Positions 3,149 through 7,587 of a stretch of 8,641 nucleotides of DNA are shown piece by piece. This stretch comes from a virus. Taxonomy: Duplodnaviria; Heunggongvirae; Uroviricota; Caudoviricetes. Below the pieces are notes generated by a model. The model was not told the DNA's origin. It was given only the letters and a program-made list of their open reading frames with translations, and did not search any database. The position numbers and the translations under genes are program-made. The stretch is from the IMG/VR virus record IMGVR_UViG_2671180299_000012, one strand, 5' to 3'. Position 1 is the stretch's first letter. Every line of letters begins with the position of its first letter.

Positions 3149-3480
3149 GTTTTGTTGATGCGCCGTATCGTCGCTGTATTCCCTCATTAACAGAGACCGC
3201 AGCCCGACAGGGAGACTCCTCTGCGCGAGTGTGCGGGGATAATCAAAAACGATACACACCGGGGTTTACCGCGTTAACGGAGCGCGGCGTTGTCCCCTCA
3301 TGGTCGCTGGTTCGGTGCGATGGTGGAAGAAACCGGACGATGTGTTACCTCGCAAGACCTGTTATGTCATGTGTCTGATTTGTGATTTAAGTCGGATAAT
3401 TGTCGTTGCCATTAAGCAGAGGATTGATGGCCGACAGGGTGGCATTGTTAGAATAAGACTTATTCTTATCTGTGCCGGGA

Positions 3481-3813
3481 ATGAAAATGAAAAGAAATCT
3501 TCCGTTAATTATTTTGTTGTCTTCTCTGGTTATGGGCTGTACGCAACATAAAACAGATATGCCCCGACAGTTGGTTAAGGCATTACCACAATATCCGGCC
3601 TATGCAGCGGCAAATTATATAAAGGGACGGGTTGATGTGAAGTTTGATATTGGTGCTGATGGTACTGTCACCCGAATTGAGTTTATCCGTTCAGAGCCGC
3701 ACCATCTGTTTGATGAGCAGGTTGTAAAGGCGATGGCAAAATGGCGATTTGAGAAGGACAGGCCGCGTAAAGGCGTGAAGAAAACGTTTATCTTTAGTCC
3801 TTCTGCACCCTGA
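3481..3813 (+). CDS. Lipoprotein with TonB C-terminal domain (phage moron; function unknown)
   Basis: ORF with possible starts at GTG 3472, ATG 3481 or ATG 3487. It has a signal peptide with a lipobox (LSSLVMGC) and Thr at +2. The mature part (YPAYAAANYIKGRVDVKFDIGADGTVTRIEFIRSEPHHLFDEQVVKAMAKWRFE) aligns residue by residue with the E. coli TonB C-terminal domain ([54 protein letters not shown]). There is no proline-rich spacer or N-terminal TM anchor. A possible sigma70 promoter lies upstream (TTGATG, ~19 nt, TAGAAT at about 3424-3454). Confidence 0.7.
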   Translation: MKMKRNLPLIILLSSLVMGCTQHKTDMPRQLVKALPQYPAYAAANYIKGRVDVKFDIGADGTVTRIEFIRSEPHHLFDEQVVKAMAKWRFEKDRPRKGVKKTFIFSPSAP

Positions 3814-3944: not shown

Positions 3945-4169
3945 TCATTTCTCGTTATTTGTCATGCTGGCCGGGCGCAGATGCGTTGCATCTGTTGCCA
4001 GCCTTCTCCTGCAGGCTTCAATAACCCACGCTGAAAAGTTACCGGAACCTTTATGTTCAAGGGCGATATTGATCTGTTCAATCATGTGATTGGGAAACGG
4101 ATATTGCGGGTTGTGGTTCTGCGGGTCCGGTTTTTCGATGACATATTTATTTCCTTTACTGATTGCCAT
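3945..4169 (-). CDS. Arc/Mnt-like ribbon-helix-helix DNA-binding protein
   Basis: 74-aa minus-strand ORF. The segment PQYPFPNHMIEQINIALEHKGSGNFSAWVIEA matches the Arc pattern PQFNLRWPREVLDLVRKVAEENGRSVNSEIYQRV, with the beta-strand, first helix and G-x-S/N turn in register. It is divergent from the HNH gene with only 16 bp between the two start codons. Confidence 0.6.
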   Translation of the reverse strand: MAISKGNKYVIEKPDPQNHNPQYPFPNHMIEQINIALEHKGSGNFSAWVIEACRRRLATDATHLRPASMTNNEK

Positions 4170-4185
4170 ATGACGGGGATTTTAC

Positions 4186-4551
4186 ATGGCTGAGCTTCGT
4201 ACACTCCAGAGCAGAATCAAAACACTGAATACCCGACGGGTGAATATTCTGAAGGGTGAACAGCGTCGTGTCAGTGGCAGTGCACGTGTTTCCCTCAAGC
4301 GTCATATCTGGCTCAGGGACGCCGGGCAGTGCCGTCTCTGTGGTCGTGTGGTTGACCTCTGTGACAGTGAACTCGATCACCGAATTGCACTTCAGTTCGG
4401 TGGTGGTAATGAGGAGACGAATCTCTGGACGCTCTGTACCGAATGCCATCGACAAAAGTCTGCTCGTGAAGCGGCGAGTGATATGCCGGACCCGACGCTG
4501 CCGGAGGTGTCCGGAGGTAGTGGCAGAGAGGACGACATCATCGGACTGTAA
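4186..4551 (+). CDS. HNH endonuclease (packaging-associated HNH of cos-type, HK97-like phages)
   Basis: 121-aa ORF with a CRLCG ... DHRIALQFGGGNEETNLWTLCTECHRQK HNH/zinc-finger motif. It sits immediately upstream of the cos-like region and terS, the characteristic position of HNH proteins that assist terminase in HK97-like phages. Its last 23 codons (from 4483) lie inside tandem repeat copy 1. Confidence 0.85.
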   Translation: MAELRTLQSRIKTLNTRRVNILKGEQRRVSGSARVSLKRHIWLRDAGQCRLCGRVVDLCDSELDHRIALQFGGGNEETNLWTLCTECHRQKSAREAASDMPDPTLPEVSGGSGREDDIIGL

Positions 4552-5003
4552 CCCGACCCCGGGGGGGGTATCATCCGGCGTAAAAAACGATCGCTTTGGA
4601 CACCGCCCCCCGTCTCACGCAGAGAAAAAATTCCCGTTTCAGGGCAGTTAACATGTTAACTGGCTGTCCGGGCATTTTTGCGGTTTTTATCTTTATTATT
4701 CAGTTTGTTGCGTGGAAAAAATGTTAACAGGCTTTTTCAGCAAATGTTAACCAGGCAGCAGTTAACATTTGCGGCATGAGACGCCGGGAAAAATGGGCTG
4801 AACCATACCCGGCTGAGTGCGTTATGGACCCGGGAGGAGGCTGTGCTGACAACGCAAAAACGAAAATTTGCGCTGGCGCTCATGTCCGGGAAAAACAAAA
4901 CAGCGTCAGCCATTGCCGCTGGTTATTCGGCGAAGACCGCCAGGGTTAAAGGCTCGCAGCTGGCAAAAGATCCGGAGGTGCTTGCGTTTATAGCCCGTAA
5001 ACA
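4483..5003. repeat. Tandem direct repeat, copy 1 (~521 bp): HNH 3-prime tail + cos-like intergenic region + first 161 bp of terS
   Basis: Direct comparison with 5008..5526 gives about 13 differences in ~520 bp, including a 2-nt indel (ACCCC versus AGC before a G8 tract). The 161 bp of terS coding sequence is identical in both copies. Confidence 0.9.
4645..4768. promoter_or_regulatory. Putative cos / terminase-recognition region: 18-bp perfect palindrome plus ATGTTAAC motif array (copy 1)
   Basis: CAGTTAACATGTTAACTG (4645-4662) is a perfect 18-bp palindrome. Further ATGTTAAC motifs lie at 4721-4728 and 4744-4751, with the inverted form GTTAACAT at 4761-4768. The region sits between the HNH gene and terS, where cos lies in HK97/lambda-like phages. 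Function is inferred. Confidence 0.4.
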
Positions 5004-5076
5004 AGGTATGCCGGACCCGACGCTGCCGGAGGTGTCCGGAGGTAGTGGCAGAGCGGACGACATCATCGGACTGTAA
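4843..5076 (+). CDS. Duplication-derived chimeric ORF: terS N-terminal 55 codons fused to the duplicated HNH C-terminal tail (possible pseudogene or decoy)
   Basis: GTG start at 4843 with the same GGGAGGAGG RBS as the full terS. Residues 1-54 are identical to the terS N-terminus (MLTTQKRKFALALMSGKNKTASAIAAGYSAKTARVKGSQLAKDPEVLAFIARKQ). At the repeat junction (~5004-5007) it switches to GMPDPTLPEVSGGSGRADDIIGL, the HNH tail with one E-to-A change. Confidence 0.5.
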   Translation: MLTTQKRKFALALMSGKNKTASAIAAGYSAKTARVKGSQLAKDPEVLAFIARKQGMPDPTLPEVSGGSGRADDIIGL

Positions 5077-5526
5077 CCCGAGCGGGGGGGGTATCATCCG
5101 GCGTAAAAAACGATCGCTCCGGACACCGCGCCCCCTCTCACGCAGAGAAAAAATTCCCGTTTCAGGGCAGTTAACATGTTAACTGGCTGCCCGGGCATTT
5201 TTGCGGTTTTTATCTTTATTATTCAGTTTGTTGTGCGGAAAAAATGTTAACTGGCTTTTTCAGCAAATGTTAACCAGGCAGCAGTTAACATTTGCGGCAT
5301 GAGACGCCGGGAAAAATGGGCTGAACCATACCCGGCTGAGTGCGTTCTGGACCCGGGAGGAGGCTGTGCTGACAACGCAAAAACGAAAATTTGCGCTGGC
5401 GCTCATGTCCGGGAAAAACAAAACAGCGTCAGCCATTGCCGCTGGTTATTCGGCGAAGACCGCCAGGGTTAAAGGCTCGCAGCTGGCAAAAGATCCGGAG
5501 GTGCTTGCGTTTATAGCCCGTAAACA
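5008..5526. repeat. Tandem direct repeat, copy 2 (~519 bp)
   Basis: See copy 1. The offset between copies is 525 bp before the indel and 523 bp after it. Copy 2 runs directly into the remainder of the full-length terS. Confidence 0.9.
5168..5291. promoter_or_regulatory. Putative cos / terminase-recognition region (copy 2)
   Basis: Same 18-bp palindrome (5168-5185) and ATGTTAAC motifs (5244-5251, 5267-5274; inverted 5284-5291) as copy 1. All motif cores are identical between copies; the substitutions fall between them. Confidence 0.4.
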
Positions 5527-5929
5527 GTGCGAGACGGTGGAGGTGGATGAGGTTCCTGTTTACCGGCAGAAAAAATCAGAGCAGGAGGATAAACCCCGTC
5601 GCCGTGAGGCGGCTGCAATACCACAGCCGGACGAAAACAATCCGGAGATGCCACCGTCCGCGGTGATGTCTCCTGGTATTGAATATATGGAGGATGGTCT
5701 TCCCGATCCGGTGAAAGCCATGGGGCGGATCCTGGTGGAAAACCTCTGCATTGATCCGAAACTGGCACTGGATGCGGCCTGGCGTCTGGCGCAGTTCACG
5801 CACCATAAAAAAGGGGATACCGGGAAAAAATCGGCAAAAGGTGATGCCGCGAAAAAAGCGGCTAACCGTTTTGCGGTGCCACCGCCACCCCGACTGGTGG
5901 TGAATAACGATAATGAGGAAAGCGGATGA
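5366..5929 (+). CDS. Terminase small subunit (Terminase_2-type)
   Basis: 187-aa ORF with a GTG start and GGGAGGAGG RBS. The N-terminus LTTQKRKFALALMSGKNKTASAIAAGYSAKTARVKGSQLAKDPEV matches the conserved HTH DNA-binding region of small terminases. Its stop overlaps the terL start (ATGA at 5926-5929), indicating translational coupling. Confidence 0.85.
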   Translation: MLTTQKRKFALALMSGKNKTASAIAAGYSAKTARVKGSQLAKDPEVLAFIARKQCETVEVDEVPVYRQKKSEQEDKPRRREAAAIPQPDENNPEMPPSAVMSPGIEYMEDGLPDPVKAMGRILVENLCIDPKLALDAAWRLAQFTHHKKGDTGKKSAKGDAAKKAANRFAVPPPPRLVVNNDNEESG

Positions 5930-7587
5930 TACCTGTATGGAGCACAGCCTGCCCGGACTGGGCAGAGCGCCTGAAAAAGGGGCTGTCGATTATTCCGGAT
6001 CCGATTTATCCGGACGAGGCCGCACATGCCCTGGCGATTTTTAAACAACTGCGGATTGTGGATGCACCTGGTAGCCCGACGTTCGGGGAGTCCTGTGCAC
6101 CGTGGGTGTTTGACCTGGTGGCGGCCCTGTTTGGCTCCTACGATGCGCAGACCGGTGTACGCCATATCAAGGAAGTTTTTATCCTTATCCCCAAGAAAAA
6201 CTCGAAGTCCACGCTGGCCGCGGGGATCATGATGACGGCGCTGTTACTGAACTGGCGGCAGGCGGCGGGTTACACGATTCTGGCCCCGACTGTGGAGGTG
6301 GCGGCCAACGCCTTCAACCCTGCCCGGGATATGGTACGACGTGACGATGATCTGGATGACCTCTGCCAGGTACAGACCCATATCCGGACCATCACCCACA
6401 GGGTGACAGACACCACCCTGAAGGTGGTGGCAGCCGATCCGAATACGGTGTCCGGTATCAAGTCCGTGGGTACGCTGATTGATGAGTTGTGGCTGTTTGG
6501 CAAGCAGTGCAAGGCGGAGGACATGTTACGTGAAGCCATAGGCGGCCTTGCCTCCCGCCCGGAAGGGTTTGTGGTGTATACGACCACCCAGTCGAATGAA
6601 CCGCCCGCCGGGGTATTCAGACAGAAACTGCAGTACGCCCGGGATGTGCGCGACGGCAAAATTCATGATCCGCACTTTCTGCCGGTGATATTTGAATACC
6701 CTCCTGAAATGGTGGAAAGCGGGGCTCACCTGCTGATGGAAAACCTCGCCATGGTCAATCCGAATCTCGGCTATTCAGTGGATGAGGCCTTTCTGTACCG
6801 GGAGTACCGTAAAGCCCGGGAAGCCGGTGAAGAGACATTCCGGGGGTTCATGTCAAAACACGCCAATGTGGAAATTGGTCTTGCCCTGCGCTCTGACCGC
6901 TGGGCGGGGGCTGATTTCTGGGAAGAGCAGGGCCGTTGTATCAGCCTGGACGATATCCTGCGTCGTGCTGATGTGGTGACGGTGGGGATTGACGGCGGAG
7001 GGCTGGATGATCTGCTGGGGATGTATGTGATTGGGCGTGACCGGGAGACCCGCGAATGGCTGGGCTGGGGCCATGCCTGGGCGCATGAAACCGCGGTGGT
7101 CCGACGGAAGAGCGAGGCGTCCCGGTTTCAGGATCTTGTTGCCTGTGGAGATATGACCATTGTCCGGCGTGTCGGGGATGACACGGCGGAAGTGGCGGAA
7201 TATGTGCGTCGCATTCATGAGGCTGAGTTACTGGACCATATCGGTATTGACCCGTCAGGGGTGGGGCAGATTCTGGATTCACTGGCGGAAGCCGGGATCC
7301 CCGACGGAATTGTGGTGGGGATAAGCCAGGGCTGGAAACTGGGCGGGGCCATTAAAACCACCGAGCGCAAACTGGCTGAAGGGGTGCTGGTGCATGGTGA
7401 CCAGCCCCTGATGGCCTGGTGTGTCGGCAATGCCCGGGTGGAGCCTAAAGGTAACGCCATTCTTATCACCAAACAGGCCAGTGGACGGGGAAAAATTGAC
7501 CCGCTGATGGCGCTGTTCAATGCGGTCTCCCTGATGTCCCTTAACCCGGAACCGAAAAAGAAAGAATATGCGGTTTTTTTCATATAA
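5926..7587 (+). CDS. Terminase large subunit (HK97-like Terminase_1 family)
   Basis: 553-aa ORF with a deviant Walker A-like PKKNSKST, a Walker B-like LIDELW, and nuclease-domain acidic motifs (VTVGIDGGGLDDLLG, GIDPSG, KIDPLMALFNA). Its size and position right after terS fit a large terminase. Confidence 0.9.
   Translation: MIPVWSTACPDWAERLKKGLSIIPDPIYPDEAAHALAIFKQLRIVDAPGSPTFGESCAPWVFDLVAALFGSYDAQTGVRHIKEVFILIPKKNSKSTLAAGIMMTALLLNWRQAAGYTILAPTVEVAANAFNPARDMVRRDDDLDDLCQVQTHIRTITHRVTDTTLKVVAADPNTVSGIKSVGTLIDELWLFGKQCKAEDMLREAIGGLASRPEGFVVYTTTQSNEPPAGVFRQKLQYARDVRDGKIHDPHFLPVIFEYPPEMVESGAHLLMENLAMVNPNLGYSVDEAFLYREYRKAREAGEETFRGFMSKHANVEIGLALRSDRWAGADFWEEQGRCISLDDILRRADVVTVGIDGGGLDDLLGMYVIGRDRETREWLGWGHAWAHETAVVRRKSEASRFQDLVACGDMTIVRRVGDDTAEVAEYVRRIHEAELLDHIGIDPSGVGQILDSLAEAGIPDGIVVGISQGWKLGGAIKTTERKLAEGVLVHGDQPLMAWCVGNARVEPKGNAILITKQASGRGKIDPLMALFNAVSLMSLNPEPKKKEYAVFFI

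Follow-up and report, generated by a model that had tools for sequence, protein, structure and literature searches.

The window analyzed here (the whole 8,641-nucleotide stretch of IMG/VR virus record IMGVR_UViG_2671180299_000012) is an ordinary BP-4795-like (Marienburgvirus-type) lambdoid prophage of Escherichia coli. Its genes follow in the order lysis genes, a DUF3950 gene on the minus strand, an HNH endonuclease gene, the small and large terminase genes (terS and terL), and the major capsid gene. The HNH gene (4186..4551, plus strand), recognized by Pfam PF01844 (33.8 bits) and by the HNH annotation in BP-4795 and E. coli relatives, is a packaging accessory typical of HK97-like phages with a cohesive-end site (cos). 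The intact terS (5366..5929, plus strand) encodes 187 aa and is identified by Pfam PF03592, PHROG 641, its fold, and the covariation discussed below, whereas terL (5926..7587, plus strand; Pfam PF03354 and PF20441) encodes the large terminase with its ATPase and nuclease domains. Between the HNH gene and terS lies an array of five copies of the 8-mer ATGTTAAC (core GTTAAC), and the placement given to it in the initial annotation is borne out by Pfam and by the annotation of relatives. We consider it likely that these five units are sequence-specific recognition sites of the small terminase TerS, forming a cosB-like array just inside the packaged left end. The phage itself is an HK97-style, HNH-dependent cos phage of the BP-4795/Stx1a/Stx2c prophage group (Stx, Shiga toxin).

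In the whole window ATGTTAAC is found 10 times against 0.14 expected, the maximum in 200 shuffles being 2. The copies come as two sets of five because the region is duplicated in tandem over about 525 bp: set A at 4647(-), 4653(+), 4721(+), 4744(+), and 4761(-), and set B at 5170(-), 5176(+), 5244(+), 5267(+), and 5284(-). The first two units, m1 on the minus and m2 on the plus strand, are embedded in CAGTTAACATGTTAACTG, an exact 18-bp palindrome at 4645-4662. Both the perfect palindrome and the claim that five copies of the 8-mer are far above chance had been put forward in the initial annotation, and both hold.

To place the array with respect to the packaged end, we can rely on a close relative. 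Stx1 phage Lys8385Vzw was induced from E. coli O103 RM8385, and PhageTerm analysis of its virion DNA gave CGCCCCCCCT as the cos sequence, the cohesive ends being of the 3′ type (PMC7946995). Its genome record MT225100 starts with CTCACGCAGAGAAAAAATTCCCGTTTCAGGGCAGTTAACATGTTAAC (in a longer reading, CTCACGCAGAGAAAAAATTCCCGTTTCAGGGCAGTTAACATGTTAACTGG) and terminates in GGACAC-CGCCCCCCCT (in a longer reading of the same end, GATCGCTCCGGACAC-CGCCCCCCCT). These ends align at window position 4613/4614, in a region that is 95-98% identical to the cos region of Lys8385Vzw, BP-4795, 1717, and 2851. By homology, cosN of the first copy is predicted at 4604..4613 (plus strand), with the 10-nt 3′ cohesive end CGCCCCCCGT and a left end that would begin at 4614. 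The second copy has its predicted cosN at 5127..5136 (plus strand), with the sequence CGCGCCCCCT, the form common to most distant relatives, and its left end would begin at 5137. A 10-nt 3′ overhang beside an HNH gene would fit the HK97 pattern. A headful (pac) mode of packaging, on the other hand, is not what was found, as the close relative Lys8385Vzw has defined cohesive ends. When the matched phage records were searched by BLAST for ends falling in the element, none were found, these records being prophage-derived. SfI/SfV have a cos (TGCCCGCCCC) that is part of another packaging module and has no bearing on this element.

Counted from the left end at 4614, the palindrome (4645..4662, both strands) occupies +32..+49, the other sites +108..+155, and the terS start (4843) lies at +230. 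The palindrome is followed by an A/T-rich spacer of conserved length (4663..4720, plus strand), in which the block TTATTCA-N5-TTR (4698-4710) is kept in both site classes described below. Thereafter come the direct site m3, ATGTTAAC (4721..4728, plus strand; +108..+115), and the inverted repeat m4(+)/m5(-), AAATGTTAAC-N9-GTTAACATTT (4744..4768, both strands; +131..+155, with m5 at +148), which is hairpin-capable as RNA. The second array (5168..5291) repeats this layout with its palindrome at 5168-5185, m3 at 5244-5251, m4 at 5267-5274, and m5 at 5284-5291. To the left of the palindrome lies the most conserved part of the region, the cos core (4598..4644, plus strand), which reads GGACAC-[cosN]-CTCACGCAGAGAAAAAATTCCC, has an A6 tract at +12..+17, and is conserved across genera. 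A run of eight G residues (4561..4568, plus strand; 5084-5091 in the second copy) marks the left edge of the conserved region, and its length and flanks differ between relatives. By analogy, the position of the array would match that of cosB in lambda. Of the two roles offered in the initial annotation, cosN or cosB, the cosB-like one is thus favored by position, conservation, and covariation. The palindrome as cosN, in contrast, is ruled out, since, by the mapped ends of Lys8385Vzw, cosN falls at 4604-4613 and the palindrome 32 bp inside the left end.

The cohesive end itself varies. Among close relatives the 10 nt are polymorphic (CGCCCCCCCT, CGCGCCCCCT, CGCCCCCCGT, and CGCGCCCCCC), independently of site class, and one may ask whether such ends are compatible in mixed infections. 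Besides, in a set of O157 PPompW prophages (e.g., LC567822) the insertion sequence ISEc20 (IS110 family) is annotated at the G-run, at about window position 4565, suggesting that this edge of cos is an insertion target at which packaging would be inactivated.

The segment from the HNH gene to terS is widespread. It matches 94 phage records (Stx1a, Stx2c, and Stx2a phages, BP-4795, 1717, and 2851) and is present in 1,283 of 5,426 complete E. coli genomes, where a single genome may have as many as 8 copies. Exactly five motifs are found in all 80 IMG/VR loci with a complete region, and all 94 matched phage records have five sites as well. These close relatives are uninformative with respect to constraint, as the whole of 4660-4850 is near-invariant among them and their variation clusters in the G/C-rich 4552-4612. 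The same applies to the two copies in the window. The initial annotation had pointed out that these agree in their motifs while the flanking bases have diverged. This is true of the motifs, but the copies differ at only five positions in the 229 bp after cosN (4667, 4711, 4713, 4729, and 4824), and the probability that none of these hits one of the 38 motif columns is about 0.4 (P). With five differences only, and a duplication that is private and looks recent, the comparison is weak evidence of constraint.

The decisive comparison is therefore the one with relatives at 65-85% TerS identity, where the sites are kept while the spacers vary, in line with the check on homologs that had been proposed at the outset. 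Within the GTTAAC class, 36 of 38 site columns are invariant, as opposed to 42 of 84 spacer columns (Fisher p = 4.8e-7). Three loci (L166, L179, and L183) show the same architecture and keep 36-38 of the 38 site bases but just 53-59 of the 84 spacer bases. The number of sites ranges from five to six, with a sixth exact copy in L183 and a sixth near-copy in L166 and L179. A second group of loci (L167 and L171-L178) keeps both architecture and spacing, whereas all its sites have been switched together to ATGTTTAY (ATGTTTAT or ATGTTTAC). Here, the palindrome becomes ATAAACATGTTTAT and the inverted pair ATGTTTAC-N9-GTAAACAT. This second class, accompanied by a TerS with E25/S32/C35, is rare: it occurs in 11 of 5,426 complete E. 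coli genomes (H204-H211 among them), several of them Shiga toxin-producing E. coli, and the phage collection contains none.

What sets the two site classes apart is found again in TerS. The protein scores 36.0 bits against PF03592 (Terminase_2; cut-off 26.1), and in its AlphaFold2 model residues 1-56 have a predicted local distance difference test score above 90, with helix H2 at 19-25, a turn, and H3 at 33-41. In this model, residue 32 caps the recognition helix of the helix-turn-helix (HTH) as its N-cap and residue 35 lies in the first turn. The N-terminal domain superposes on the DNA-binding domain of SF6 TerS (Foldseek, 4zc3, TM 0.84, root-mean-square deviation 1.6 Å; TM 0.81-0.84 for 4zc3/2cmp), and its sequence relatives in the PDB are small terminases only. 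A PDB profile search (E<=1) found only SF6/SPP1-, PaP3/NV1-, and Pam5-type TerS proteins and no HK97 TerS; HK97 gp1 was not compared directly.

Two N-terminal alleles can be distinguished, namely AI(A/T)AGYSxK-T-AR-V-KG and AIEAGYSxK-S-AR-C-KG, and the TerS of the window, with A25/T32/V35, carries the one of the GTTAAC class. The site class was predicted from the TerS allele before the loci were retrieved. All 6 distinct Thr32/Val35 (K-T-A-R-V) alleles turned out to lie behind GTTAAC sites and all 5 Ser32/Cys35 (K-S-A-R-C) alleles behind GTTTAY sites (11/11 in total). Residues 1-56 follow the site class (93% identity within versus 86% between classes), but the rest of the cassette does not: the corresponding figures are 77 versus 78% for the TerS C-terminus, 92 versus 93% for TerL, and 83 versus 84% for the HNH tail, which is as near to the sites as terS and yet does not co-segregate with them. 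One protein (P0021) is a recombinant TerS that combines the HTH of the GTTTAY class with the body and C-terminal part of the other class. As a side note, the TerS of Escherichia albertii (P0001, 202 aa) has a 15-residue internal tandem duplication (DKPRRREAAAIPQPD) in its low-complexity linker, with the DNA-binding and oligomerization domains on either side.

The exclusive covariation with the TerS HTH bears on the question of which protein the sites serve. Operators typically are palindromic repeats, and the array could accordingly be bound by another protein, be it the DUF3950 product, the HNH protein, a host factor, or RNA polymerase at a promoter. The initial annotation had named an adjacent ribbon-helix-helix (RHH) protein, for which the DUF3950/YlcI-YnfO gene (3945-4169, minus strand) is the only candidate. 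This gene is near, but it lies about 480 bp from the array on the far side of the HNH gene, and the array is intact in loci that lack it (L171-L173 and L183), so that the RHH suggestion falls away. As for the HNH protein, its tail does not track the site class. A weak sigma70-like match (9/12) on the minus strand, with m4 and m3 as -35 and -10, could hint at a promoter. The array, however, is part of the late operon, with lysis genes on one side and head genes on the other, where a leftward promoter would have no gene to drive, and the promoter-like hexamers are degraded in the GTTTAY class. With the TerS HTH as the sole covarying partner of the sites, we deem a role for another DNA-binding protein unlikely.

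A function at the RNA level can be weighed against the same observations. In the late transcript, the inverted copies might fold into hairpins that control terS translation or mRNA stability, m4/m5 giving a 10-12-bp stem and the palindrome a hairpin whose loop holds the AUG. Indeed, m4 and m5 are predicted to pair in both the minimum free energy and centroid structures, the A-to-T change of the second class is compensatory for their stem, and most family members have the palindrome across the start codon of terS, at a distance of 7 nt from the preceding Shine-Dalgarno sequence. The fold of the region, on the other hand, barely beats shuffled sequences (z = -1.8; 9/200 shuffles), and an Rfam scan gave no match at E<=1. 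Moreover, the palindrome has no workable loop, its arms (GTAAAC/GTTAAC) mismatch at one position in most genera, and m3, a lone direct copy, is still switched in concert with the others. RNA pairing also gives no reason for covariation with TerS residue 32, and we regard such a role as very unlikely.

Recognition by TerS also finds a counterpart outside E. coli. TerS relatives with 33-48% identity are encoded in Atlantibacter, Kluyvera, Enterobacter, Serratia, Erwinia, Pantoea, Morganella, Citrobacter, Burkholderia, and Janthinobacterium. The distant relatives (L082-L105 and L107) share a noncoding element of about 100 bp that runs from G7-8 through GGACACCGCGCCCCCTCTCACGCACAGAAAAAATTCCC, GGAGGGT, and GTAAAC to ATGTTAAC; Salmonella phage FSL SP-016 is among the relatives examined for it. 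At the DNA level, the cos core is kept among genera of the Enterobacterales and as far as Burkholderia and Janthinobacterium (23 divergent loci), and all 11 intermediate sequences have it as well; the order in which the HNH gene precedes cos, terS, and terL is kept in most divergent loci too. The palindrome of the window is homologous to a GTAAAC-AT-GTTAAC element, which most family members carry across the start codon of terS: the gene begins at the palindrome ATG (ATG TTA ACn, Met-Leu-Thr) in 19 of the 23 distant loci. An additional GTAAAC half-site is present in many distant relatives (L083-L100), 18 bp left of cosN and at -73 relative to the start of terS; in the window this half-site has decayed to GTAAAAAAC (4580-4588). 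In these genera the noncoding half-site is GTAAAC/ATAAAC in 14 of 15 Ser32 loci and GTTAAC/ATTAAC in all 6 Thr32 loci. The Thr/Ser rule thus holds in 20 of 21 loci overall and spans at least four lineages.

Judging from these comparisons, the E. coli Stx-type lineage would represent a derived state, having gained about 190 extra bp, three or four more sites, and a new terS start, which reads GTG CTG ACA (GTGCTGAC). The motifs could then also be viewed as nonfunctional relics, since ATGTTAAC equals the ancestral terS start and might have been left behind by repeated partial duplications of cos and the terS 5′ end. The palindrome ATG that starts terS in the distant loci, the extra length and new start GTGCTGAC of the E. 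coli lineage, and the window's own duplication of about 525 bp (the region does duplicate) all agree with such an origin. Relics should, however, decay like their flanks, whereas the 8-mers are near-invariant and the spacers only 60-70% identical. Furthermore, the five parallel substitutions of the second class need selection, and so do the noncoding GTTAAC copies in Pantoea and Morganella (L099 and L101), where terS starts with ATGCTGAC. Duplication may account for how the copies arose but not for why they have been kept, and we consider the relic explanation highly improbable, the least probable of those weighed here. A true relic is probably found in the open reading frame (ORF) at 4653-4727 (plus strand), which opens at the ATG of the palindrome, encodes 24 hydrophobic codons (MLTGCPGIFAVFIFIIQFVAWKKC), and stops within m3. 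Neither L166 nor L171 conserves this frame, and we treat it as a leftover of the ancestral terS start.

The overlap with the start codon raises yet another option, in which TerS binds the sites mainly as an operator to autoregulate terS and terL rather than for packaging. In most of the family a site indeed overlaps both the start codon and the spacer that follows the Shine-Dalgarno sequence. In the window lineage, however, the sites lie 75-190 bp upstream of the real terS start, which makes occlusion impossible, and the position of the array beside cosN is conserved. As a main function, autoregulation is unlikely; as an additional one, it is compatible with cosB-like recognition and attractive for the wider family.

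Considering the conservation of sites versus spacers, the concerted change of all sites, and the covariation with the TerS recognition helix, we come back to the cosB-like array and infer from these patterns that TerS physically binds it. The HTH domains of a TerS oligomer would occupy the palindrome (+32..+49), whose two inverted half-sites we propose as the primary site for a TerS dimer, as well as the downstream cluster (+108..+155). The A/T-rich spacer of conserved length, possibly bent by IHF, would bring both groups of sites together. TerL and the HNH protein would thereby be placed on the conserved core 32 bp upstream and cut there, yielding the 10-nt 3′ cohesive end (4604-4613), and packaging would then run rightward through terS. 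The putative IHF site is the block ATTCA-N5-TTR (4698-4710), which has 2 mismatches to the IHF consensus WATCAANNNNTTR and is conserved in both site classes. A scan with this consensus gave no statistical enrichment, and it is the conservation of the block that suggests a role for IHF.

Several points weigh against this interpretation. The ends have been mapped by PhageTerm in one relative only and not for this element. The characterized TerS site of HK97 is closer to the cut (+15..+29) and is recognized by way of an A-tract (PMC11331095), so the A-tract found here (+12..+17) could be part of the TerS contact or even the main one. Critically speaking, the site spacings of 8, 68, 23, and 15 bp do not show a simple helical register either. 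With respect to the covariation, sites and HTH codons are 75-230 bp apart, so some linkage is conceivable, although the HNH tail, about as far away, does not follow the site class, and the two classes in the E. coli lineage may go back to a single ancestral split. One locus (L095) is the single exception to the Thr/Ser rule. Lastly, the coding half of the palindrome stays GTTAAC in the Ser32-type distant relatives, since the Met-Leu-Thr codons fix it, and the difference in specificity would consequently be a preference and not absolute.

It is instructive to compare the array with known packaging systems. In lambda, cosB comprises the gpNu1 sites R3-I1-R2-R1, and lambda and phage 21 form a packaging-specificity pair. 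The element shares with lambda cosB the short repeats for a TerS HTH (predicted here) in both orientations, the interval from cosN to terS, the location in the end that is packaged first, and the A/T-rich stretch with a possible IHF site between two groups of sites. As in lambda and 21, site sequence and TerS N-terminal domain covary as a specificity cassette. There are differences as well. The TerS described here is a Terminase_2 protein with an SF6-like HTH, whereas gpNu1 of lambda has a winged helix; the overhang (by the relative) is 10 nt and 3′ as opposed to 12 nt and 5′ in lambda, and the system is HNH-dependent. Moreover, the array opens with a perfect palindrome, which in most relatives extends over the start codon of terS, and the IHF role is putative here.

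With HK97 (cos, gp1 as TerS, and gp74 as HNH protein), the element shares the order HNH, cos, terS, and terL, the 10-nt 3′ overhang (here by homology), a TerS site (here predicted) at most a few tens of bp beyond the cut, and an A-tract following the cut. HK97 TerS requires a single 15-bp site at +15..+29, which it reads via Arg128 and the shape of the A-tract (PMC11331095). In contrast, the array described here has multiple sites spread over +32..+155 and goes together with a TerS of the SF6/SPP1 sequence family.

The third comparison concerns the G1P proteins of SPP1 and SF6, which have a homologous TerS DNA-binding domain (PF03592; TM 0.81-0.84 to 4zc3/2cmp) and likewise several recognition sites. 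In SPP1, pacL and pacR flank pacC, and in the distant relatives of the window, half-sites flank the cut on both sides in the same way. Unlike these headful (pac) packagers of Bacillus, the phages discussed here have defined cohesive ends (by the relative) and an HNH partner. Finally, Lys8385Vzw, BP-4795, 1717, and 2851 carry the same element, but the window alone carries the region twice. What has been published for this phage group is the 10-nt cos sequence only (PMC7946995); a literature search found no description of the repeats, and a full-text search with the sequences themselves gave irrelevant matches only. All in all, the array would join a known kind of element, TerS recognition sites, with the predicted specificity switch as its new part.

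The duplication deserves separate attention. The unit comprises the last ~70 nt of the HNH gene, the intergenic region, and terS through codon 54, and its two copies (A, 4482..5006, and B, 5007..5530, both plus strand) are 97% identical and meet in a junction at 5004-5006. Copy A, with the HNH 3′ tail, the cos region, and the first 54 terS codons, has 13-14 differences from E. coli MB06102. Copy B, continuous with the intact terS, is identical to the single copy of that strain, and downstream of it the window is 100% identical to MB06102. The HNH allele of the window, 292 of 296 nt identical to MB06102, differs from that of the closest single-copy relative. These alleles suggest that copy B is the native one and that copy A is foreign, as is the HNH gene on its left. 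The window consequently contains two complete cos regions 523 bp apart, the cohesive-end sequences of which are not identical (CGCCCCCCGT versus CGCGCCCCCT). Upstream of the intact terS, the tandem duplication has also created a chimeric ORF (4843..5076, plus strand) of 77 aa, in which the TerS DNA-binding domain (residues 1-54) is joined in frame to the last ~22 HNH residues (Terminase_2, 37.4 bits over residues 2-54). A free TerS DNA-binding domain that lacks the oligomerization part could compete for sites.

The listed relatives carry one copy, as each listed best match covers about 1,220 bp of the 1,744-bp query. A 46-nt probe seeding only across the junction had no match in 5,426 complete E. 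coli genomes (an earlier 81-nt probe had matched single-copy genomes merely as two pieces), and the junction is also absent from 80 IMG/VR loci. The duplication would thus be private to the source of the window and looks recent. With copy B being the MB06102 allele, and copy A and the HNH gene another allele, it resembles the product of an illegitimate join between two related phage genomes; the window could come from a natural "cos-duplication" phage or, alternatively, be a chimera of the assembly.

Taken further, though more tentatively and with somewhat less than even confidence, these observations could define two packaging-specificity classes among the lambdoid prophages of E. coli, including many Stx1a and Stx2c prophages. 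Thr32/Val35 versus Ser32/Cys35 would be matched by one A-to-T change per GTTAAC site and would decide by which terminase a co-resident or defective prophage can be packaged. Where the TerS site lies over the terS start codon, as it does in most of the family, it would couple recognition to autoregulation, and the window would represent the natural "cos-duplication" phage whose extra DNA-binding domain is a possible decoy. Prophages of roughly one in four complete E. coli genomes carry this terminase module, many Shiga-toxin phages among them, and strains often have multiple copies. The predicted rule that pairs Thr32 with GTTAAC and Ser32 with GTTTAY makes cross-packaging of prophages, defective prophages, and satellites testable, and hence the spread of stx and effector genes. 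It also offers, for HNH-type cos packaging with an SF6-fold TerS, a short cos cassette of ~250 bp that is defined at the sequence level, linking the well-studied DNA-binding domain of pac-type TerS proteins with cos-type recognition.

One last observation concerns the lysis/late region. A TonB C-terminal domain (Pfam, 55.9 bits) is recognized in the ORF at 3472-3813 (plus strand), which matches a PHROG annotated as an Rz-like spanin as well; its counterpart in Lys8385Vzw is annotated as "protein TonB".

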